Shown piece by piece: positions 2,481 through 63,187 of a stretch of DNA of 64,000 bases. Under the pieces are notes generated by a model that was given only the letters and a program-made list of their open reading frames with translations, was not told the origin of the DNA and made no database searches. The DNA comes from Octopus sinensis (Eukaryota). Every line of letters starts with the position of its first letter. Position 1 is the first letter of the stretch. The position numbers were made by a program, and so were the translations under genes. The stretch lies in contig NC_043001.1 of assembly GCF_006345805.1 (NCBI RefSeq), forward strand, positions 77,314,001 through 77,378,000, given 5' to 3'.

Positions 2481-2643
2481 AGACTGAATAAGTGAATAGC
2501 AGAAGGCATGAGGTGTAATTTCAGTGATTCACTCATACTCCAGCGTTCCTTTTCAACATATTATAGAGAAAACCATAAGATTCATTGCAAGAAACCTTTT
2601 GCTATGAGCTCTTCCGTTTATTACATACATGCACAAACAGGGT

Positions 2644-2874
2644 TATTTCTTTACTACCCAGAAGGGGCTAAACACAGAGGGGACGAACAAGGACAGCCAA
2701 AGGGATTAAGTCGATTATATCGACTCCAGGGCATAACTGGTACTTATTTAATCGACCCCGAAAGGATGAAAGGCAAAGTCGACCTCGGCGGAATTTGAAC
2801 TCAGAACGTAGCGGCAGACGAAATACGGCTAAGCATTTCGCCCGGCGTGCTAACGTTTCTGCCAGCTCGCCGCC
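2644..2874 (-). mobile_element. SINE family B, full-length
   Basis: Reverse complement of the 2250 copy. Confidence 0.9.
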
Positions 2875-2934
2875 TTTATTGCACAATACCACCTTACTAA
2901 TACTTCAAAACAAGTATCGTTCATCTTCGTAGCA

Positions 2935-3075
2935 GTACGGTTTAGAAATTCGCTTTGCAACCACGTTGCATCGGGTTCAGTCCCACTGCACGGCACCTTG
3001 GGCGAGACTCTCCTATTATAGCGCCGGACGGTCGAGTGCTTTGTGAGTGAATTTGATAGACGACAACAGAGAGCC
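2935..3075 (+). mobile_element. SINE A head, degenerate
   Basis: GGGTTCAGTCCCACTGCACGGCACCTTGGGC ... GTGAGTGAATTTGATAGACG. Confidence 0.7.
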
Positions 3076-3123
3076 AGGCTTTGACGTGACGTATATAATA
3101 AAAGTCTGTTTAAAATTTGACAA

Positions 3124-3226
3124 GTTTAAAACTTTACCTGGTGATGGTGGATTGTATATAACGATGCAATCTTTTTATGACGGCATAAAATAAAACTTAC
3201 CGAAACAGGTGTCGTAAATTTTAAAC
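3124..3226 (+). ncRNA. Type I hammerhead ribozyme motif (A6G variant) with branched stem II
   Basis: Stem I GTTTAAAAcTTTAC/GTAAATTTTAAAC; core CTGGTGA at 3138-3144; stem II GGTGG/TTACC; GAAA at 3202-3205; stem III AC-aggt-GT; GUC triplet at 3211-3213. Confidence 0.75.
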
Positions 3227-3254
3227 GCCATTTGTGGTTTATTTTATACATACA

Positions 3255-3360
<106 letters not shown>

Positions 3361-3405
3361 TATATATATATATAAAATGATATGTTACATTTTACTCAAT
3401 AGTCA

Positions 3406-3468
3406 AGATAAAACTCTGAGTTTCAGAAGCCGAAGTAGAAATCCACAACACCATCTCTTCGGTTATCT
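3406..3468 (-). ncRNA. Hammerhead-like motif (CCGAAGA core) in inverted PLE terminal repeat
   Basis: Minus strand AGATAA-CCGAAGA-[decayed stem II]-GAAA-CTCAGAG-TT-TTATCT, with a perfect 6-bp stem I. Confidence 0.6.
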
Positions 3469-3780
3469 GGCCATCCGAAAATCGCTATGAAAAAATACCG
3501 TTATATAAAGGGAAATTACTGTGTTATAATTCTGCTCGCGAACCCACGTGCGTACTTATACTTCACTATGAAAACGTACACATCTTCACTCGCATTTTTC
3601 GCCAAATATATACGCATATATATACAAACTCATACACACACATGCGTACCGTAAAAGTTCATACATACGTCTATATACGCACAAGCACATACGGCTAATC
3701 ATTTCGCCCGGCGTGCTAACGTTTCTGCCAGCTCGCCGCCTTTATTGCACAATACCACCGTACTAATACTTCAAAACCGC

Positions 3781-4233
3781 TAATACAAATGGACCAGCAC
3801 ACGATCGTTTTAGGAAGGATATTATCCAATTAATGAAATACTTCGGACTTAGTATAACTATAGATACTAACCTGACGGTTGTCAATTTCCTAGACGTTTC
3901 CTTACATCTAAATAAGAATATTTATAAGCCTTATTGGAAGCCCAATGATAAACTTAGTTATATTAATGTAGGTTCATACTATCCCCCTATAGTATCCAAA
4001 AATTTTGTTAAAAATATTAGTAAGAGAATTTCTAGCCTCTCCTCCGATAAGGATATTTTTAATAGCGTTGCCCCAGTTTATAATAAGGCTTTAAAAGATA
4101 GTGGTTTTAGCGAAAAAATAAAATATACACCTGTTACTAGCCCAACAGTAAAGAAGAGGAAAAATAGAAATAGGAAGATCATCTGGTTTACACCCCCTTA
4201 CTCACCTGAGGTGACCTTCAATATAGGTAAATC
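3781..4233 (+). mobile_element. Penelope-like element RT C-terminal/linker fragment
   Basis: ORF 3833-4255: VVNFLDVSL, YKPYWKPNDKLSYINVGSYYPP, RKIIWFTPPYS are typical PLE motifs. Confidence 0.85.
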
Positions 4234-6074
4234 TTTTATCTTGACTATTGAGTAAATGTAACATATTTTATAGATAAACTTCCTCTATTTACATAATATT
4301 GAGGTCTTTTTCTTTCTTTTGTTATCTTACCGTTTTTACCAATATATATATATATATTATATATATATATATATATATAATATATATATATATAGATATA
4401 TATATATATATATATATATATACGGATAAAAGAAATAGTAAAATATGATTAATGAATAAAGACTAATATGAACAATGACGAAAAGTTATCAAATATAATT
4501 AACAAGCTGAGAATAACAAGGAGAATAATAAAATGATTAATGAATGGAAACTAATGCAACTATTGATTAGAGAACATAACGGAAAATTGCAAAGTAAGAG
4601 AGATATTAATTTCTTCAATATATAGGAACAACAAACAAAAATGACGAAATTGTGATTAACGAATTAAGATTAACTTGAATAAAGATTAATGAATAATAAA
4701 GTGACAATAGCTGTAAAGGTGTTTTCAAGAGTGTTTTAAACATTAAAAAAATATATAAAAAAATGAATATAGAATAATGTATAACGGGAATGAAATTAGG
4801 AGTAAAGACTAATAAAGCAGGAACAATAAAAGTCTTTGAAGAATATTGAAATCTCAAAGATTCCATTGTTCTGTGAACGGAATGGTCGTTCACTAGAATT
4901 GGATTTTCCCTTTGATGTATCAATATTCTATTGGAAGCAATGTTATTGATAAGCTAAATGCGTACACTCTCATTCCCACACATATATGTACATGCATATA
5001 CACACACTTATATAGAATTTATTACATATACTTACATACATACAAACATAAACCAGATGAAGCCTTCTCGTAGCTGATACATGTGCTAGAAACAGCAACC
5101 AAATCTCACTAAATTTATTTACTACCATCTTACGTATGGAAATAATACATCCAATAATACATCAGGTGGCCAGGATTAAAAAGCATCTAATCATGGGTAT
5201 AATCAATCAGGACTGACCTGGGGCTGAACAACAACAATATTAACGAACTCATACAGAGTTGATTCGTATTATTTCAGTTAATAAGAGCCTCATTGAACTG
5301 TTAATAGATAACCAGGTTTTGAAAACGGATGATCAGGTCCCTCTGTTTTTCTGGTCGAGAGAGCACTATGCTAGGTTGGTTCAATCGTGATTCTTACCCC
5401 CCCCCCCAAAAAAACCATGTTACATATTAAGTATTATAATAAAGATTTTATTATTTTTTTTGTTGCCGAGCTCGTATCATCATCCGGTGTGTGTTTGTGT
5501 TTATCTTACAATATGTGAGGTTTAAGTAGATGAGGAACAAACCTACTTCACTCCTGAATAAGTTTCTAGGTTATTGTAAGTGGGTTTTGTCTTTGTAAAT
5601 CAAGAATGGTACTTTACTTCAACAAAATACTTGCACGTGCTGTTGCTGCAATTGGCGCAACATTAGATCATGATGTCATTTTGTAAATGAAGTTCCCCTT
5701 ACAAATGAAAGAAAAAGCAAAACAACTGTACTGTTTAGAAAATGTTGTTTGATAACGGTAAGAGTGCTTCTCTCTGCCCTGATTTTAAGTTGGTCATTTC
5801 TTGTTATTGATGAGTGCTGGTTGCAGGAAGCCATTAGATATGGATTAGTAGCTATAGTTATTACAAACACATACAATAGATCCTATATTCTTTAAGCAAA
5901 AGAGTGTACTGGGCATTTTTGATGTGTTTGTGCAACATAACGATATACTATCGTTGCTATTCTCAGTTGAGAGCTATCAATGGATATAAATATTAAATAT
6001 AAACGCGGATTACAAACAAGAAGAAAGAACAAAACAGAAAGAATAAAACAAAGAATAAAACAGAAAGAATAAAA

Positions 6075-10734: not shown

Positions 10735-10886
10735 TTTTATTCTTTTATTTGTTTCCATTATTTGACTGCTGCTATGCTGCAGCACCGACTTTTGAAGGGC
10801 AATTCGACCCCAGGACTTATTCTTTGTAAGCCAAGTACTTATTCTGTCGGTCTGTTTTGTTCAACCGCTAGGTTACAGTGACGTAA
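10735..10886 (-). mobile_element. SINE A 3' part abutting truncated mariner
   Basis: GACCCCAGGACTTATTCTTTGTAAGCC matches the 18.4 kb copy. Confidence 0.75.
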
Positions 10887-11731
10887 TCGACAAGGGAAGT
10901 GGCAGAGAAAATGGAATGCTCTCACACTGCTATAGAGAAGCATCTTCACTCGATAGGAGAGGTTCAGAAGTATACAGTATGGGTTCCGCATGCTTTAAGT
11001 GACAACAACAAAAATCAATGAGCCACAATCTCCGCTGGTTTGCTTGCTCGTCACCGCTCAACTCATGGTCACAAGCAACGATTTCTTTACCGAATTGTTA
11101 CTGGCGACGAAAAATGATGCCTGTACATCAATATGAAGCAGCGTAAGGAATGGCTTAGCCCCGGTAAACAAGCGACACCGCGAGTGAAACATGATCTTCA
11201 TCCACGTAAAACGATGTTGCGCGTATAGTGAGACTGGGAAGGAATTATCCATTACGAATTGCTTCAACGGAACCAAACGGTCAACGCGGAAGTCCATGTT
11301 CGACAGATGGAACGACTCAACACGGCTATTCAAGAGAAAAGACTTAACTCTCAGCATGGGGTTCTTCTGCTGCACGACAACGCCCGCCCTTATATCGCCA
11401 ATATGATCAAGGAAGCCATTGAAACGCATGGCTGGGAAGTGCTGCCACGCCCGCCGTACTCTCCTGATATAGCACCAACGGATTTCCACCTCTTACGATC
11501 TCTTTCAAATGATATGCGTGGAGTTTCGTTCATTACTGATGCAGAATTGAGAGCTTGGTTGGATCAATTTTTCGAGTGAAAATCGAGGAATTGAAAATTT
11601 TGTTAAACGTTAGGAAGAAGTTATAAACAAGAGTGAATACATTATTGATTAATTAATTGTTAGTTTTTATTAAACCTTTTAAAAAATTGAAATAAAAAAA
11701 AAACGGCGGTAACTTAGTTGCCAACTCAATA
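10887..11731 (+). mobile_element. mariner (DD34D) element, 5'-truncated pseudogene
   Basis: WVPHAL, IVTGDEK, HDNARP, YSPDIAPTDFHL motifs and right TIR AAAACGGCGGTAACTTAGTTGCCAACTCAATA. Confidence 0.92.
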
Positions 11732-11751
11732 ACATATATACATATACATAC

Positions 11752-11827
<76 letters not shown>

Positions 11828-17794: not shown

Positions 17795-18357
17795 TATATA
17801 TAATATATATATATATAGTGAGTTTGTGTAACGTAATTAATATTTGATGATATATGCAATGTACGCCCCCCACACATATCTATATATATTGTGAGTGTGT
17901 GTGTAATATAATTTATATATATTTGTAATATTTTTTCATATATGTAATGTATATGTACGAACCAAGCATTTTATCGATCTTATTGGTATTTGAACCTAGA
18001 ACATAAAGAACTAAGAAATATCGCTAACGTATCTGCCAGCTCACCGGCTTCTAACAACAACAACAACAACATCAACAACAATAATAATAATAATAATAAT
18101 AATAATTGCTTATTTTGGGCAATCTCTACAGGTTTCAAGAGAATAAAACACAGATATATCAGAAATATTTTCAATCAGTTCCAACAAGTTTCAGTCCGTA
18201 CGTTATATATCAAATATGTTTAATTTGCTACGATGTCTAAAATCTAATGTGATCCCAGTTTGAGTCGAAGTTGTTTGTGAAGTTTTCTCTGGATGAAGCA
18301 ACATTATTTATAATTTGTTCGAACTTCGCTTTGTTTATCCTGAATCGGTATATGCTT

Positions 18358-18835
18358 TACTCTTTACTCTTTTACTTGTTTCAGTCATTTGACTGCGGCC
18401 ATGCTGGAGCACCGCCTTTAGTCGAGAAAATCGACCCCAGGACTTATTCTTTGTAAGCCTAGTACTAATTCTATCGGGCTGTTTTGCCGAACCGCTAAGT
18501 TACGGGGACGTAAACACACCAGCATCGGTTGTCAAGCAATGTTTGGGGGATAAACATAGACACACAAACACACACACTACACACACACACACACACGACA
18601 CCACACCACCCACACACCACCCACACACACACACACACACACACACCCATATATATATTACATATACATATGTACGACGGGCTTCTTTTAGTTTCCGTCT
18701 ACCAAATCCACTCACAAGGCTTTGGTCGGCCGGAAGCTATAATAGAAGACACTTACCCAAGGTGCCACGCAGTGGGACTGAACTCGGATCCATGTGGTTG
18801 GTAAGCAAGCTACTTACCACACATCCACTCCTGCG
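18358..18835 (-). mobile_element. SINE A, full-length
   Basis: Complete 3' tail, internal (CA)n and A/B-box head. Confidence 0.9.
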
Positions 18836-20381
18836 GTATGTTGACGTTACAACTAAGTCGAACTGTTGAGAAACATGTTTCAAATGTTGTCACAGATATT
18901 AATCAAGAACAAGGATCACTTTACACCAATGAAGTTCTGACAACTGACTCAACACTACAGTAAACTACCACACATGTGCAGTCTTCCTGAGATTCATAAG
19001 GACGGTATTCCATTAAGACCTATAGTGAGCTGTAGAGATTCAGCATGTCATCCACGAGTCGCTTCCCTTGTGGATATAATCAGTTCATTAGCAGGAAACT
19101 CTACATCGTACGTGAAGAATTCCACCCACAGAATTGCGCAAGGATACCACCATTGAATGCAACCAGATGGTGAGTCTAGATGTAATAAGTCTGTTCACCG
19201 AAGTCCCAACTGTTGAAGCACTATCGGTGATTCAAGAAAAACTAGTGACAGACACCCATCTAAAAGAACGCACTAGTATACCAATAAGAAACTCGATGGA
19301 AATGTGACCTTCTGTGTAGAAACTATCTACTTCAGTATGGACACTGATATATTATATATCGACAAGAAAAGGGTTCGCCATTATCACCGATAATAGCGAA
19401 TATATACATGGAATACTTTGAGAATTTGTCTTTAGGATCAACACCACTAAAACCAACCCTATGGCTGCGATATGTTGATGACACCTTCATACTCTGGCCC
19501 CTCTAGGAAGATGTCCAAGTGCTGTTAGATCATGTGAACTCAATAAAGCCATCTATACAGTTCACAATGAAAAAAGAAAAAGAAAATCAGCTAGCGTTCC
19601 TGGACGTATTAATAACACGCACCAAGTATGGATTCAGGTCATCCGTATACCGCAAGCCGACTTTCACTGGACGATACCTCAACTTCAACTCCCACCATCC
19701 ATACAGTGTAAAGAGAGGGATTGCTCAGAGCAATGAATATAAGTAGCGATCGTGATACCCACCACGAAGAAATGATCAAGCTCAGTAACAATCTATTAAG
19801 CAACAAGTACCTCAAAAGCATACTCTCCGCTCCAGTTATGAAGGAAAGAGGGGATGAAACCGATAAATTGTCCACAGGCTGTCTAACCTAATTGAAAGGG
19901 ATCTCCGAAAAGATACAAAAGACATGCGGCCCATATGACATCAGGACAGTATTCAAAAGTAATACAACACTTCGCAAATATCTCCTTCGAGTAAAACCAC
20001 CAATAGAAGAGAGCATGACCAAGAACTGCGCGTACTCCATGCCATGCAATTGTGGTAAATTATACAAAGGCGAAACATGCCGCCCTCTCAAAATAAGGGT
20101 AGACAAACATCGCAAAGCTGTGATATAGGGAGATATTGTTTAAATCGGGTATAGCTGATCATGTATGGAAAAATAGAGACCACCTCCCCCTGTAGGATGA
20201 AGTTAAATAATAGACAGAGAACACCACTGGAAAATACGAAAACTAAAAGAAGCAGGACATATGCTAGGACTCAACAACCTCCTAACCAGACCAAGTGCAG
20301 ATATGAACAGCATATAAGAACCAGTATTAGGGAAGGATAGGAGAATATTAGCTTTATAAGCCCTAAAATTCACCAATAGTT

Positions 20382-20450
20382 GCCCACGGGCGTATGGCGG
20401 AGAGGTTAAGAGCGCGGGCTACTAACCCCAGTTCGATTACAGGCAGTGAG
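20382..20450 (+). other. tRNA-like sequence in PLE 3' UTR
   Basis: TGGCGGAGAGGTTAAGAGCG (A box/D arm), GGG-CTACTAA-CCC anticodon arm, GTTCGATT B box. Confidence 0.7.
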
Positions 20451-20525
20451 CTTAATAATAATAATAACAACAACAACATCAAAAATACCTTAGGAATGAG
20501 AACACAGGTTCAAAATTTCCCAAAG

Positions 20526-20569
20526 ACACCTGATGAAGACTGGAGTGTATATCAGCCGAAATGTTGTGT
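20526..20569 (+). ncRNA. Minimal type I hammerhead ribozyme
   Basis: ACAC-CTGATGA-A-GACTG...CAGCC-GAAA-TG-TT-GTGT; the 28.8 kb copy has a fully paired GGCTG/CAGCC stem II. Confidence 0.75.
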
Positions 20570-21532
20570 TAACAACAAACAAGATGAGGACAAATATTCG
20601 TCAAATATAAATAATGTATATTTTTCAACCGATTCAGTCAAGTTACGTCTTGTTTCCATAGGTATTCACTTCGCCTATTTACCTGAGTTTATTCATATTT
20701 CTAGCACCATACTAGTTTTTTGTGGTTCTGTTGTTTAAATCGGGTTTGAACCAGTTTAAACTAGTCGCGTGGAATAGTTCAATCCCCATTACATACTCCC
20801 ATAAACATATACCGCTCCTCACCTCTTTCACTATGAACATATATACGTAGACACACATATATATATATTGTATACATCCATACATATATTTGTATCTATC
20901 TATCATTTATCTATCTGTACATCCTACTGTCTGTCTGTTTGTCTGTCTGTCTCTATTATATTTTACAAACACACTCACACATTCACTTACTCTCACAGTC
21001 ACGCACACACACACCCATATACATACATACATACATGCATACATACATACATACATACATACATACATACATACATACATACATACATACAAATATATGT
21101 GTATACACAAATACATACATATATGTATTATACATAAATGCATACCTATATCTATCTACTTTAGAAATACGCACACACATACACACATATACACTCGCAA
21201 AGGCAAACATAGAGTATGTATGCAACAAGCCCAAATTCATATGTTTAGTGAAATATAATGTGAAAGATGGAAGATATTATTTTAGAAACGCGTTTTATTA
21301 TCAAAATATCTAATAGTAAGATATGGTGATAGCCAGTTTGAAAACCTCTAAGACACTACATATAGACGCATTCCTATAATATACACACCCGCAGTCATTC
21401 AAAATGTCGTCTCTACATACATACACAGGAATACAGAACAGCAGACACAAGACACACGCACACTCTACAACAATTAAAGATGTAAGAACAGATTTTTATT
21501 GGAGTGTATGTCTACATATGTATGTATGTATG

Positions 21533-24281: not shown

Positions 24282-24515
24282 TACTAAAGCCAGTAAACGT
24301 TTGTAACCAAAGCCAAATAACTGAAGCAGGGTACTCATAGCTTACATGTATCCCTTTTCCAGTCATGAAATGATAAAATGCGTTCAATGATATATCTTAG
24401 TCATGCATTGCATTGTATCTATATCTCCATATATGTGTATATATATATATATATATATAATACATATACATGCATACATACATATATACTTATATATATG
24501 TGTGTGTGTGTGTGT

Positions 24516-25757
24516 GTTCCTGCCGGTTTTTAAATCTAAATCTTAAAAGGTTTAATAAAAAATAACAACTAATTAATCAATAATGTATTCACCCTTGTTG
24601 TTTCCAACGTTCAACGAAATTTTTTCCACTCGAAAAATTGATCCAACCAAGCTCTCAATTCTGCATCAGTATTGAAGGAAACTTCGCACATAGCAATTGA
24701 AAGAGATCGAAAGAGGCGGAAATCCGCTGGTGCTAAATCAGGAGAGTACGGCGGGTGTGGCAACACTTTCCAGCCATGCGTTTGGATGACTTCCTTGGTC
24801 ATATTAGCGATAGGAGGGCGGGCATTGTCGTGCAGCAGGACTCCATGTTGACGATTAGGTCTTTTCGCTTTAAAATCCGTGTTGAGTCGTTCCATCTGTT
24901 GAATCTAGAGTTCCGCGTTGACTGTTTGGTTACGTTCAAGCAATTCGTAATGGATAATCCCTTCTCAGTCAGTCCCACCATACGCACAACACCATTGTAC
25001 GCGGATGAAGATCTTGTTTCACGCGCGGTGTCGCTTGTTTACCGGAGCTAAGCCATTTCTTACGCTGCTTCATATTGATGTACAGGCATCATTTTTTGTC
25101 GTCTGTAATGATTCAGTGAAGAAATCGTTGCTTGTGTCCATGAGTTGAGCGGTGACGAGAAAGCTAGCCAGTGGAGATTGTAGCTCATATATTTTTGTTG
25201 TTGACACTTAAAGCATGCGGAACTCATGCTTCGTACTTCTGAACCTTTCCCATAGAGTGAAGATACTTCTTTATAGCTGTGTGAGAGCATTCCATTTTCT
25301 CTGACAATTCCCTTGTCGTTTGACGAGAAATTTCGTGCAAAAGTTGGTTTAATCGCTTTTTATCGAACTCAAAAGGACGGCCAGAACGAGGTGCGTTTGA
25401 GGTCAAAATTTCCATTTTTGAACTTTGCATACCAACCACGAGCAGTTCTTTCAGCTATGGCATCCTCTCCATACACAGCACAAATGTCGGGAGCAGCTTT
25501 TGCGGCCTTAGAACCTTGATTAAAAGCAATAAGGAGGAGGTGTTGAAAATGCTCTTTTTCTTACCTTGACAATCCGTTTTAATGACCTGAAAATAAACAA
25601 AAATTAACTAAAATTAACTAGAAGAAAAAACAAAACGAAATAGATTCCAAAATCATTCAAAAATAGAATTCTCGAAAAACATAGATTCCCAAATTTAAAA
25701 ACACAATAAATTTCTAACTTAAAAAAAAACGGCAGGAACTTAGTTGTCAACCCAATA
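24516..25757 (-). mobile_element. mariner (DD34D), near full-length pseudogene, same family as 10887-11731
   Basis: HDNARP and HPPYSPDLAPADF motifs plus an N-terminal HTH (ICAVYGEDAIAERTARGWYAKFK). TIR at 25721-25757, with a partial TIR at 24516. Confidence 0.92.
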
Positions 25758-28770: not shown

Positions 28771-28911
28771 TACATTATTTACATTCGACGGATACTTGTC
28801 CTCATCTTGCTTGTTGTTAACACAAAGTTTTGGCTGATATACCCTCCAGCCTTCTTCAGGTGTCTTGGGGAAATTTCGAACCTGGGTTCTCATTCCTAAG
28901 GTATTTTTTGA

Positions 28912-28992
<81 letters not shown>

Positions 28993-29113
28993 CATTATTA
29001 TTATCATTATTATTATTGTTTTTGTTATTGTTCATGTCCCTGCTTGGAATCGAACTTGGAATCTTGGGGTTAGTAGCCCGCGCTCTTAAACAATACGCTA
29101 TATGCCCGTGGGC
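28771..29113 (-). mobile_element. Stand-alone tRNA-head + (AAT)n + HHR unit homologous to 20382-20618
   Basis: Same order and sequence. HHR at 28820-28863 has a CTGAAGA core with GAAA decayed to AAAA. Confidence 0.85.
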
Positions 29114-31991: not shown

Positions 31992-32110
31992 TTTATATTA
32001 TATTTCCTGCATTTAGACTGAGCTGACGTATTTTTGTCCCCAAACATTAGTTAACTTGAGCGATACATTTTCTTTTGTTCGATAGAGTTTTCATTGGATA
32101 TATTAACACC

Positions 32111-32340
32111 TATTTCTTTACTACCCATAAGGGGCTAAACACAGAAAGGAAAAACAAGGACAGACAAACGGATTAAGTCGATTATATAGACCCCAGTGCT
32201 TAACTGGTACTTATGTAATCGACCCTGAAAGGATGAAAGGCAAAGTCGACCTCGGCGAAATTTGAACTCAGAACTTAACGGCAGACGAAATACGGCTACG
32301 CATTTCGCCCGGCGTGCTAACGCTTCTGCCAGCTCGCCGC
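32111..32340 (-). mobile_element. Young SINE B flanked by a 120-bp direct duplication
   Basis: 31992-32111 is nearly identical to 32341-32460. Confidence 0.9.
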
Positions 32341-33689
32341 TTTATATTATATTTCATGTATTTAGACTGAGCAGACGTATTTTTGTCCCCAAACATTAGT
32401 TAACTTGTGTGATACCTTTTCTTTGGTTCGATAGAGTTTTCAATGGATATATTAACATCTAACGTGTTAGATATTTCCACCTGTTTTGCAAGAAATTAAA
32501 TTAATCTATGTATATTTGTATATGCTTTAGTCGCTTAGAATGTAAGCAACATTTATTTGATTTTTATATAAAGAAAATATGTAAATTTTATTCCAAATTT
32601 TCGTTAATAATGCCGTCGCATATGCAAACCAACAAACACCAAAGCAAAAAAAAAAAAAAATCAAAATAATAATTAGAAATTTGATCATTGAGAGGCAGAG
32701 TATTCTTTTATGCGTTTCAATCCAGGGGCCGAAACACAAATGTTTCAGAAATATATTTTGCATTTTCAGAATATTCAATTTCCAGAATAGTGTCATTTCC
32801 AAACTTTTTCAACAATTCTTTGATGTTTCTCTCCGACAACACAAAACTGGCACCACACACACGTCGATGGACAAGATGCATGCGTTACTCTGGACTGAGC
32901 AGGCGTGATTTGATTCAATATTTTCCTAAAGACTTTCAACATTTTATATTCCATGTGTGCTAAGTTTGTATTTCAGGTAATTTTGTTCTTGGATTGTAAA
33001 AAGAAGAAAAATATCGTAATTCTACTGAATATGTTAGTTTTTCTTTGGTTCAACGTGACTTTCATTTGATATATTAACACCTAACGTGTTGGATAATTTC
33101 ACCTGTTTTACAAGAATTTAGATTCATATTTTTACTTGTTTTCGTCTCATTCCGAGAAGGTGACTTTATTTTACATTAGAAAATATTACGTCAGTTTTAT
33201 GCTAACATTTTGATATATTTACCCTTGGACAGCAATAAGTTGTTGACTATGTTAACTAACAAATATCAAGCTAAAGGAATTTAGTAAGAAGTGGGAATTT
33301 AGTTATTGCAAAGCAGAGCAGTCTATGAAAGTCTTTTGAAACTTCACATTTCCCGAATATTATCTTTTTCAAAATATATATTGCAGTAATTCTGTGATAT
33401 TTCACATCGATAGCAACAAGAGTCACGCACAGGTACGTATACACAAATGTCGATGAACAACAGTTGGGCTGAGCTGATATGTTTGTGTTCACTATTTTAC
33501 CAAGAACTTTCTGAATTTTATTATACTCCACGCGTGTATGCTTGTATTTCAATCAAGTCAGCTATATTTATTTTTATTTAAAAAAAAGCTAAAAAGACGT
33601 AATTATATCAAATATTTTATTTTTCGTTTATGAATTTGTTTTGCAAGATTCCTGATGTGAAATCGTGTGTTGAAACGGATATTGTTATA

Positions 33690-37229: not shown

Positions 37230-37357
37230 AGCATTGTCTCCTCCCACACGCGCTCACAAAATTTCACTGTATTTCACTAAGCCTTACTGTATCTCCAGAA
37301 TCGCTCTTCTTCTCTCCCTTTCTCTCTGAAGATAGACATATGGCTGTGTGGATAGGC

Positions 37358-37517
37358 TCAGGAGCGGTTGTGTGGTAAGAAGCTTGCTTCCCAATCACAT
37401 GGTTCCGAGTTCAGTACCACTGTGTGGCACCTTGAGCAAGTGTCTTCTGCTATAGCTTCGCGCCGACCGAAGCCTCGTGAGTGGATTTGATAGACAGAAA
37501 CTGAAAGAAGCCCGTCG

Positions 37518-37557
<40 letters not shown>

Positions 37558-37567
37558 ATATATATAC

Positions 37568-37600
<33 letters not shown>

Positions 37601-37795
37601 TGTATGTTTGTATGTATGTATGTATGTATGTATGTATGTATTTGTGTGTCTGTGCTTGTGCCCCCACCATCGCTTGATAACCGATGTTGGTGTGTTTACG
37701 TCCTCGTAAAGAATAAGTCCTGTAATCGATTTGTTCGACTGAAGGTGGTGCTCCAGCATGGCCACAGTCAAATGACTGAAACAAGTAATAGAATT
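37358..37795 (+). mobile_element. SINE A
   Basis: A/B boxes, internal (TA)/(TATG)n and CAGCATGGCCACAGTCAAATGACTGAAAC tail. Confidence 0.85.
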
Positions 37796-38251: not shown

Positions 38252-39347
38252 TATTTCTACTCTAGGTACAATGCCTTGAAACTTCTTGGGGATGGGGGTA
38301 GTCGATTACATCGACCCCAGTGAGTAACTGGTACTTATTTCGTCGACCCCGAAAGGATGAAAGGCAAAGTCGACCTGAATGGAATTTGATCTCAGAAAGT
38401 AGCGACAGGTGAAATACCGCTTAGCATGCCGCACGGCGTGCTAACGATTCTGCCAGCTCGTCAAAAGTTTCTACTATAGGCACAAGGAGTGAAATTTTGA
38501 GAGAGTGGGTTAGTAAATTCCATAGACCAATGTACTCAACTGGTAGTTATTTTATCGACTCTGAAAGGATGAACGGTAGAGTCGACCTCAGCAGAATTTG
38601 AACTCAGAACATAAAGACGGATGAAATGCCGCTAACCGTTAAGCTCGGCATGTTAACGATTCTACCATCTTGCTGCCTTAATGATAACGATTTCAAATTT
38701 TGGCACAAGGCCAGTAAAATTTGCAGAAGGGTTAATTCGATTATATCGACTCCCAGTGCTCAACTAGTGCTTATTTTATCGACTTCAAAAGGATAAAAAG
38801 TAAAATCGACCTCGGCAGAATTTGAACATAGAACTTAAAGACGGACGAAATGCCGGTAAATATTTTTCTCGCAAGTCTATAGATTCTTATTTCTTTAATG
38901 CCCACAAGGGGCTACACACAGAGGGGACAAACAAGGACAGACCAACGGATTGAGTCGATTATATCGACCCCAGGGCGTAACTGGTACTTATTTAATCGAC
39001 CCCGAAAGGATGAAAGGCAAAGTCGACCTCGACGGAATTTGAACTCAGAACGTAGCGGCAGACGAAATACCGCTTAGCATTTCACCCGGCGTGCTAACGA
39101 TTCTGCTAGCTCCCCGTTTTAAAGGTTTCACATTTTGGCACAAAGCCATCGACTTCGGGGCGTGGGTAAGTCAATTACATCGACTCCAGTACTCAAGTGG
39201 TATTTGTTTTATCGCCTCCGAAATGATTACCGAAATGATAAAAATGTAAGTCTTCCTCGGGGGAATTTGAACTCAGAACAAAGAGACATACGAAATACTG
39301 CCAAGCATTTGCCCGCCGTTCTAACAATTCTACCGACTCGCCACCTT
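38252..39347 (-). mobile_element. Head-to-tail array of five SINE B-related copies
   Basis: Repeated GGTAC/GTTATTTTATCGAC ... GAATTTGAACTCAGAAC units at about 38.25, 38.47, 38.69, 38.89 and 39.12 kb. Confidence 0.85.
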
Positions 39348-48227: not shown

Positions 48228-48458
48228 GGCGGCGAGCTGGCAGAAACGTTAGCATGCCGGGCGAAATGCGTAGCCGTATTTCGTCTGCCGTTACATTCTG
48301 AGTTCAAATTCCGCCGAGGTCGACTTTGCCTTTCATCCTTTCGGAGTCGATTACATAAGTACCAGTTACGTACTGGGGTCGATCTAATCGACTTAATCCG
48401 TTTGTCTGTCCTTGTTTGTCCCCTCTGTGTGTAGCCCCTTGTGGGCAGTACAGAAATT
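48228..48458 (+). mobile_element. Young SINE B inserted in older SINE B-like copy, with TSD
   Basis: TATTTCTTTTGGC at 48218-48230 and 48461-48473. Confidence 0.9.
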
Positions 48459-48725
48459 GGTATTTCTTTTGGCTTTACGTTCCGAACTGAAATTCTGTCG
48501 AGATCGACTTTGGTTTTCCTCCGATCGATGTTGATAAAATAAATGTCAATTGAGCACTGATGCTGATGTAATCGACTACTACCCTTGTCCAAAATTACAC
48601 GCCTGTACCCATTGTAGAAAGAATGATAAGGTAGGCAATTGGCTTATAGTTCTGTGTTCAAGCAATGTTTTCGGTCTTGGCTACAAGGTTTGCGCTTGAT
48701 ATGAACAGCCAGTTCAGTATGTCAA

Positions 48726-55921: not shown

Positions 55922-56152
55922 TTTCTCTTTCTCTTTTACTTGTTTCAGTCATTTGACTGCGGCCATACTGAAGCACCGCCTTTAGTCGAACAAATCGACC
56001 CCGGGACTTATTCTTTGTAAGCTCAGTACTTATTCTATCGGTCTCTTTTGCCGAACCGCTAAGTAACGGGGACGTAAACACACCAGCATCGGTTGTCAAG
56101 GGGGACAAACACAGACTCACAAACATATACACACACATACATACATACATAC

Positions 56153-56185
<33 letters not shown>

Positions 56186-56401
56186 ATATATATATATTAT
56201 ATATATATAATATATATATATATATATACACACACATATATACGACGGCTTCTTTCAGTTTCCGTCTCACAAATCCACTCATAAGGCTTTGCTCGGCTCG
56301 AGGCTATAGCAGAAGACACTCGCCCAAAATGCACGCAGTTGGACTGAACCCGGAACCATGTGGTCGGTAAGCAAGCTACTTACGACACAGCCACTCCTGC
56401 G

Positions 56402-61821: not shown

Positions 61822-63187
61822 TAAGGTGCGACAGGTAAATTGTTGCCATTTTGAATTTTTTACTTTACGCATTGCTTATTTTTAATTTTATCGACAACAC
61901 AAACGCCGTCTGTGAGAAAAACAGTACCATGTCGCAATTCAGTCTGCCAGAAATTTGAAAATTACATGCTGTACTGCTTGGCATTCGCGACAGACATTTC
62001 AGTGTGTTTGGGTGTTAATCTGAGGACAGTGCAAAGGATTCGGTGAGAGCTGAATAAGTCTAATGGTGATTACGATGGTACGGCAGCTCGGAAATCTCAC
62101 TCTGATCATTCCAATGAGAAAAGATCTCCTGAATTTCTTGGTGAGATGTGAAAGGGTCAATTTTTATCCCAAGCCATCAAGGACAAGAAGAAAGACCGCG
62201 CTACGAAGCATTTGAACAAATTCAAGCATCTCTTCCAACCGAATATGCTTTCGTTTTTCTGAGACAAGAAAAATTTCTGCCAGGATCAGATAGTGAACAC
62301 ACAGAGCAACCGCTGGCTTGCCGTGTCGCCAATAACATGTACCGAGACTGATAAAAGTCAAACATCCAGTCACCATCATGGTGTTTGGAGTGATCACTAG
62401 TGATGGCAATGCTATGCATCCATTCATCTTCCCACACGGCCTCAGACTCAACACGGAGGCCTACATCAAGTGCCTGGAGGAAGCAGTGCTGCCCTGGGTC
62501 AAGAGGGTGATTGCTGACGAACCTGTGTCTGACAACATAACTCTGCACTATTTCTTTATTACCCACAAGGGGCTAAACACAGAGGGGACAAACAAGGACA
62601 GACATAGGTATTAAGTCGATTACATCGACCCCAGTGCGTAACTGGTACTTAATTTATCGACCCCGAAAGGATGAAAGGCAAAGTCGACCTCGGCGGAATT
62701 TGAACTCACAAGGTAACGACAGACGAAATACGGCTACGCATTTCGCCCGGCGTGCTAACGTTTCTGCCAGCTCGCCGCCTGCACTATGCCACACAAGTAG
62801 GAGAACCCAGTCATAGCTGTCAGACAATTTTTGCGACCACATCACCCCTAACATCTGGCCACCCAACTCCCCAGACTGCAACCGCATTGATTATTATGTG
62901 TGGGGCGTAGTTGAGCGGGAGCCTAACAAAACTCCTTGTAACACAAGGCAAGGACTATAGCAGCATTCACCAACTTAAACAAGGAGACTGTCCAGAAGGG
63001 TTGCAGGAGATTCCGAAGTCGTCTTGAGGCCGTGGTTGAAGCCAACGGCGATTTCATCGAATAAATTTACTGTTTAATATTTCAAGATATTTTAATGTAA
63101 TTTTGGTAAATATATCTGTTAAAATGTGATGTCAGTATTATTTTTATTTTTACGTTATTTAGACGACAGTTTATTCATTGCACCCTA
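61822..63187 (+). mobile_element. maT-like DD37D element with both TIRs, interrupted by SINE B
   Basis: TA-TAAGGTGCGACAGGTAAATTGT / ACAGTTTATTCATTGCACCCTA-TA; KHPVTIMVFGVITSDG, WPPNSPDCN. Confidence 0.9.
62549..62779 (-). mobile_element. Young SINE B with TSD
   Basis: CTGCACTAT at 62543-62551 and 62779-62787. Confidence 0.92.

Follow-up and report, generated by a model that had tools for sequence, protein, structure and literature searches.

The tRNA-headed, hammerhead-bearing unit on the minus strand of the 64,000-nucleotide stretch of Octopus sinensis DNA analyzed here (the window) is almost certainly a solo pseudo-LTR (pLTR) of a Poseidon-type Penelope-like element (PLE). The element is a variant of its kind in which the pLTR opens with a tRNA-derived, probably promoter-like head. 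The original prediction had the unit depending on Penelope RT rather than on a LINE, which was supported. Its further proposal of a separate SINE or retrozyme lineage was not supported, as the whole unit is PLE pLTR and shares subfamilies and ages with the ORF-linked copies. The family is real and abundant in the 2.72-Gb host genome and is now mostly decayed.

Read on the minus strand, the solo unit (29113-28771) consists of a GCCCAC leader, a tRNA-like head, an (AAT)n run of about 119 nt, and a 143-nt tail. It starts with GCCCACGGGC (29113-29104) and ends with AAATAATGTA (28780-28771). The leader and the first head bases (29104..29113) form the near-palindrome GCCC-AC-GGGC, at which 5' boundaries and fold-backs of the family are most frequent. 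The head spans 29033..29107, with +1 at 29107, the A box at 29100-29090, and the B box at 29057-29047. The (AAT)n/(AAC)n spacer inside the pLTR (28914..29032) varies in length and has a family median of 31-40 nt. An ATG at 28884..28893 would open the PLE frame if the repeat were a 5' pLTR, and this frame, which has a similar N-terminal counterpart in the relative P0003, crosses the ribozyme. The candidate minimal type I hammerhead (28819..28864) comprises stem I, CUGANGA, a bulged A, stem II, GAAA, and a palindromic ACGU, and is followed by a 3' part (28771..28818) ending at the shorter ("tail-less") of the main 3' ends. Beside this end (28771-28790), family tails differ in how many times they repeat a 9-nt unit, GTAAATAAT, and changes in that number preserve the ORF frame when the pLTR is the 5' copy.

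On the plus strand of the window, a decayed and 5'-truncated ORF of the same family, encoding an RT with a C-terminal endonuclease (EN) of Poseidon type (18884..20360), is followed by a 3' pLTR at 20382..20618, with its head at 20388-20452, a short AAT run, a hammerhead at 20525-20570, and the tail-less end. In a BLAST of the window against itself, this pLTR matched the solo tail at 89% over 167 nt (E 1e-56) and the solo head at 75% over 104 columns (E 9e-14). These matches and the boundaries confirmed the earlier description of an ORF-less second copy that is homologous to the PLE and starts a few nucleotides before the tRNA-like head. The fuller T-arm region and longer AAT run ascribed to the solo copy were likewise found, in that 9 nt directly before the B box are kept there and deleted in the ORF-linked copy, and the AAT/AAC spacer is about 119 nt versus about 24 nt. 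The end AAATAATGTA is indeed common to both window copies but in the family is simply the shorter of two main 3' ends. The two window copies carry different subfamily haplotypes. The solo copy is predicted to be dead, with both G12 of the ribozyme and the A box mutated: the A box departs from the family form by three changes, and the hammerhead has changed from CCGAAACGTT to CCAAAACTTT (G12 to A, ACGT to ACTT), so that its ribozyme is predicted to be inactive. No target-site duplications were evident at the window solo copy, the one copy examined for them.

Examination of the window revealed further repeats. A repeat of about 235 bp, with copies 87-93% alike at 2248-2481, 2644-2875, 32105-32345, 38887-39121, 48228-48464, and 62549-62780, is probably another SINE. 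A 930-bp pair in opposite orientation and 83% alike lies at 10885-11819 and 24416-25321, both repeats having been found by the self-BLAST. A fragment of a different Penelope-like RT (IIWFTPPYS) at 3767-4255 on the plus strand gave no Pfam match, lies in a region rich in T4 runs, and resembles Naiad in its motif. A tRNA-headed repeat of about 480 bp with an internal microsatellite occurs at 18357-18835, 37352-37792, 55922-56401, and elsewhere; one copy lies about 50 nt ahead of the decayed PLE, and its head shows a faint likeness to that of the PLE (score 31).

Copies of the family with long open frames matched Pfam RVT_1 (E 3.5e-10). Pfam gave no match to an EN domain in family copies; their C-terminal region aligned with P0086 (E 2e-40), the CSCG..Y.G motif included. 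P0086 is an 836-aa Anolis protein, which we infer to be PAc of Anolis carolinensis, and is 44% identical over the RT part and 32% identical over the thumb and EN. Identities of the family copies to the best 120 of 878 database proteins, P0086 among them, ranged from 71 to 35%. Judged by protein similarity, the family is a Penelope/Poseidon PLE with a single ORF encoding RT and then a GIY-YIG-type EN.

The start codon of the ORF, an ATG, lies about 35 nt ahead of the hammerhead core, through which the frame then runs. The N-terminus of P0003 matches this ORF start, and a passage of PMC11167929 describes the ORF of Anolis PAc as likewise beginning ahead of the cleavage site. Behind the stop codon, the head was present at least partly in 28 of 29 copies selected by the ORF 3' end, L079 having no head and L090 the 3' half of the head alone. 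A direct repeat of the unit stood before the ORF start in 3 of 30 copies obtained with a mid-ORF query (L193, L205, and L208), and the 5' pLTR of L205 begins at the head. Among 30 copies selected at the ORF-start junction, six had a forward head upstream, four beginning at -7..+4, one at +29 with an inverted partner at -6, and one at -182. Because the direct repeat stands before the ORF start in full-length copies, the unit is a pseudo-LTR: head, (AAT)n, hammerhead, and tail together make up the pLTR of an autonomous element.

The hammerhead of the family reads GACAC-CUGA(U/A)GA-A-GGCUG...CAGCC-GAAACGUU-GUGUU. Minimal Penelope hammerheads are characterized, in part of PMC4209133, by a bulged base and a palindromic 15.2-16.2. 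The same core was present in 9 of 79 related loci. One motif from each of eight relatives (L322, a near-duplicate of L260, was omitted) was aligned with four family copies, and CUGANGA-N-stem II-GAAACGU(U/C) proved common to all. Over the six pairs, 98.6% of cells were paired and five pairs changed on both sides; stem II had been a criterion of the search for relatives, and the two stem I pairs alone are the independent test. The monomer folded just partly into the expected form by minimum-energy folding. The shared core and its pairing point to a minimal hammerhead in the family pLTR. The 3' ends of 90 copies fell at AAATAATGTA in 22, at ...TAGAACTG 30-40 nt further in 41, between the two in 23, and earlier in four. 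The longer end corresponds to the Penelope "tail", an optional extension of 30-40 nt, and the PAc tail is likewise bounded by two RT start sites, as described in part of PMC11167929. In L054, L059, and L060, as well as in L016 and L047, a pLTR tail was fused to the (AAT)n 3' end of a foreign repeat family, suggesting priming or insertion at pre-existing AAT tails.

We compared the family head, as represented by L023, with 27 distinct tRNA genes of this genome, covering six amino-acid types. The original description of a tRNA-headed unit was upheld by a score of 42 against tRNA-Arg(TCT), where shuffled sequences reached at most 23-27 (z about 11). The next-best matches were to tRNA-Thr and tRNA-Lys. 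Placed by the box consensus, the two promoter-like boxes of the family head begin at +8 (A) and about +51 (B), which is the spacing of a tRNA. A tRNA origin of the head is thus well supported by its sequence, and Arg is a tentative assignment of the isoacceptor source. Derivation of the head from another repeat in the window was rejected, the best score being 31 against 42 for tRNA-Arg. ARAGORN called no tRNA in the window, in 20 family loci, or in 18 loci of relatives. Rfam gave no match at gathering score over the whole window and, at E up to 10, neither a tRNA nor a hammerhead family on four loci and one 331-nt unit. The minimum-energy fold of the head contained no cloverleaf. Divergence was lower in the B box (2.7% versus 5.3%), which we set aside as evidence.

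Octopus tRNA SINEs, namely OK, OR1, and OR2, were reportedly described by Ohshima and Okada in 1994, with a tRNA-Arg origin for OR1 and OR2. OR1 is classed as a CORE-SINE in passages of the SINE literature. Likened by description rather than by sequence, these SINEs and the present family have a tRNA-derived head in common, but the body behind the head is here a Penelope pLTR.

Exact 20-mers at -195, -38, +1, +29, and in the tail occurred 903, 989, 4164, 4938, and 8409 times in the genome, respectively, and all controls gave 0. Correction for match rate yielded about 2100, 1700, 12900, 15000, and 19400 arms, which are rough numbers because ORF-selected loci favour well-kept copies. With some 13-15 thousand head-bearing arms versus about 2 thousand ORF-linked arms, ORF-less heads are in 6-7-fold excess, and the large excess over ORF-linked copies that had been put forward as a sign of SINE status was therefore found. 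The two classes of copies were alike in sequence. When 43 ORF-linked arms were compared with 76 ORF-less ones at 27 variable sites, no site differed (lowest p 0.09). Divergence outside CpG was 4.8% in ORF-linked and 4.4-4.6% in ORF-less arms, and the linked haplotypes G-T/A-T/A-A occurred 24/7/6 times in the former and 47/9/15 times in the latter. Since haplotypes, sites, and divergence are shared, ORF-linked and ORF-less copies were made by the same source elements.

Other forms of an independent lineage were considered. A SINE lineage sharing just its 3' end with a partner was rejected, as the entire unit is shared and carries no diagnostic variants. A free SINE made of the head and (AAT)n was also rejected: among 30 head-anchored loci, 25 had the tail downstream, four had it on the inverted arm, and one (L108) was ORF-linked, leaving no free head family in this sample. 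The tandem units of a non-LTR retrozyme were not seen as a rule either, the sampled copies being single or head-to-head, although a few two-unit direct cases occur (e.g., L031).

A hammerhead 23-mer has 5626 matches, and the first 92 of these, which all lie on contig C1, are covered by the 90 loci in which we placed the 5' ends of forward arms. Six loci that are probably duplicates of two insertions (L134/135/138/139 and L059/060) were retained in the count. Eight arms started in the ORF, 24 at the head start, 17 inside the head, 28 in the AAT run, and 13 in the tail. The last two classes run counter to a simple reading of the 5' peak; because 28 of 90 arms start in the AAT run and 13 of 90 in the tail, ordinary truncation is common. 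An inverted partner was present in 53 of the 90 insertions, and 25 of these 53 partners end at the head start. We then pooled 89 de-duplicated head-bearing arms from 150 loci, comprising 59 plain arms and 30 fold-backs. In the plot of 5' ends that had been proposed as a test, the plain arms formed a peak at the tRNA head, with 34 at -8..+6, two at -40..-9, 15 beyond -41 into the ORF, and eight at +7..+20. This peak spans about 15 nt rather than a single base and has an upstream wall at -8/-9. Fold-backs peaked at -8..-4 (11 of 30), and the exact fold-back junction occurred 320 times in the genome (control 0). In seven chimeras (L338, L343, L344, L346, L348, L353, and L354), as from template jumps, a head-started unit lies directly behind a 5' piece of the ORF, and four of these join at -7, -6, -6, and -5. 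A short A-rich linker is common to L343 and L354. The 5' ends at -7/-6 imply that RT went through the hairpin. The 5'-end peak likely marks the start of the element's RNA at the head. The peak alone is no proof of SINE status, because in other Penelopes, according to passages of PMC3846280, pLTRs also have a defined 5' boundary, carry palindromes there, and occur as solo copies.

The best joint explanation, towards which we lean with some reserve, combines a solo pLTR, an RNA started at the head, and a predicted internal promoter of Pol III type. The RNA would likely start 6-7 nt ahead of the head, the pile-up at -8..+6 would represent its 5' end, and the solo unit likely arose by reverse transcription of the 5' part of the RNA that the element itself makes. 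The Anolis Poseidon protein, according to in vitro work in part of PMC11167929, nicks AT-rich DNA and begins reverse transcription within the RNA, some 125 or 155 nt past the ATG. By analogy, if the RNA starts at the head, priming close to its 5' end would give an ORF-less unit with no separate SINE transcript. ORF-bearing copies would be rarer because they would need priming at the downstream repeat. On reaching the end of the RNA, the cDNA could fold back on GCCC/GGGC or jump to another RNA, giving head-to-head pairs and chimeras. The head itself may go back to the capture, just behind the stop codon, of a fragment of a tRNA or SINE that carried an (AAT)n tail. The least certain step is the use of Pol III rather than Pol II at the promoter.

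That Pol III reads the promoter is, on balance, somewhat probable. The likely RNA start falls on a purine, 13-14 nt ahead of the A box, which, with the A/B-box geometry, is compatible with Pol III. No sense-strand T4 run occurs in a 2.56-kb column-majority yardstick or in the 1.74-kb window copy. Synonymous shuffles gave a mean of 2.9 T4 runs with P(0)=0.026, dinucleotide shuffles P(0)=0.057, and run extension P 0.05-0.08, and G4 runs are equally absent from the element. The lack of T4 runs is in line with Pol III, though the support it gives is modest (p 0.03-0.08). T4 runs numbered 0.43 per kb in 29 single-copy segments (one counted twice) versus 2.0 in 26 relatives of at least 1.5 kb and with a T content of about 0.19-0.235. 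When all 53 long relatives were taken together, the median rose to 3.7 per kb, and one of the 53 had none. The hammerhead regions of relatives carried T4 runs in 10 of 10 cases, with 1-8 each. Weakening the case, T4 runs are missing too from the 2.0-kb ORF (2619-4617) of L251, the closest metagenome relative, although its pLTR (4680-4990) is T-rich and without a tRNA head. When three sets of raw RNA reads and a set of contigs were mapped on L084, the family was present in RNA on both strands equally, depth followed copy number, and neither a start nor an end stood out, a pattern that is uninformative on the start site.

In a fuller scheme, a captured tRNA promoter would have replaced the Pol II promoter, and Pol III would read all 2.9 kb of an element that lacks terminators. 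Its uncapped RNA would serve for translation, and internal priming on it would also yield SINE-like solo copies in their ten thousands, so that one transcript would be both SINE and mobiliser. This scheme is tentative, and we regard it as possible though hardly probable as a whole. Two further points tell against Pol III as such: an uncapped RNA would require cap-independent translation, and part of Kojima 2024 (PMC10886601) considers Pol III too weakly processive for autonomous elements.

Pol II may instead start at the same place, from a TATA-type promoter that overlaps the stop codon in tandem copies, with the head as a passenger, a captured SINE or tRNA fragment that plays no part in the promoter. 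A TATA-like TATAAG does lie at -34..-29, about 28 nt ahead of a start at -6, which suits Pol II. Passages of PMC8557442 and PMC3846280 place Pol II promoters in the pLTRs of other Penelopes, the former describing known Penelope promoters as Pol II-type, with a pLTR intron, and the latter pLTRs with fixed 5' palindromes and no tRNA heads. Transcription by Pol II would also supply a capped, translatable RNA, and the T4 evidence is weak. We nonetheless consider this unlikely, since the start would then match the tRNA +1 and the A/B-box geometry by chance, and since the pLTR is without the T runs present in all 10 hammerhead regions of relatives. Most 5' pLTRs preceding an ORF begin at the head and are therefore without the TATA, although these are not necessarily source copies.

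Short RNAs of solo master copies, transcribed by Pol III and moved in trans by Penelope RT, would make the unit an independent SINE. The 6-7-fold excess of head arms over ORF-linked arms and the 5' peak are in keeping with this, any intact solo copy could be transcribed in the absence of an internal T4, and schistosome Pol III hammerhead SINEs are a precedent. The 119 arms compared above, with no diagnostic variants, shared haplotypes, and equal age, make such a lineage quite improbable, as does the inclusion of the head in the autonomous element. The Anolis RNA moreover needs ORF sequence past the RT starts, which solo copies lack, if that need also holds here. Least probable is a peak produced by an RT stop or fold-back hot spot at the GC-rich hairpin or a tRNA-like structure in longer RNAs, which the inverted partners (53 of 90, 25 of these arms ending at the head), the 320 exact fold-back junctions, and the palindromes at inverted junctions noted as a general Penelope trait in a passage of PMC3846280 would suit, but which is at odds with the persistence of the peak in non-fold-back arms (34 of 59) with its wall at -8/-9, with the stall that a structure should cause on the 3' side of the hairpin, and with the joins of four chimeras at -7, -6, -6, and -5, which are what template jumps from end to end would leave.

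Penelopes are already known to have solo and inverted pLTRs, tails, and minimal hammerheads. PAc of Anolis carolinensis, as described in part of PMC11167929, shares with the octopus family an RT with a C-terminal EN, pLTRs, two 3' ends 30-40 nt apart, a minimal hammerhead overlapping the ORF start, and inverted 5' partners, and differs from it in that the octopus pLTR opens with an A/B-box head of tRNA origin, to which an (AAT)n run is joined. No A box and B box within 500 nt before a hammerhead were found in 79 related loci, nine of which have a detectable hammerhead. The schistosome elements SMalpha and Sjalpha, in portions of PMC6765202 and PMC8490949, also combine a promoter of Pol III type with a type I hammerhead behind it, but they are non-coding, often tandem, and released by cleavage, whereas the octopus copies are dispersed or inverted and belong, as terminal repeats, to an element with an ORF. 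The TRIMp3 elements Helenus, Ajax, and Cassandra carry a tRNA- or 5S-derived promoter in their terminal repeat, possibly acquired by SINE insertion; they are described in part of PMC10886601 as non-autonomous LTR elements with autonomous partners assumed to use Pol II, whereas in octopus the autonomous element itself, a Penelope, carries the head. Animal non-LTR retrozymes (passages of bioRxiv 10.64898/2026.07.22.740005 and PMC7761336) are likewise pLTR-derived, hammerhead-bearing, and without an ORF, but consist of tandem units, each with a hammerhead, and are said to have no promoters, in contrast to the monomeric or head-to-head octopus copies with their tRNA-like head. A literature search retrieved, in the titles, abstract openings, and passages that it covered, no description of a tRNA-headed Penelope pLTR, and none is mentioned in passages of the cephalopod and SINE literature and of Kojima 2018; Dfam and Repbase, which lay outside the search, could hold the family.

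Pol III promoters have been taken as a mark of non-coding, non-autonomous elements such as SINEs and TRIMp3. If Pol III does read the head, the octopus family would be a protein-coding retroelement driven by Pol III, open to testing as such, and would show in passing how Penelopes could give rise to SINE-like families. Even with Pol II, some 13 thousand 5' ends would map a Penelope RNA start in vivo, and they would fit the internal-priming model derived from the Anolis element. The roughly 20 thousand arms in this genome, though pLTRs, are likely annotated as SINE or tRNA repeats.
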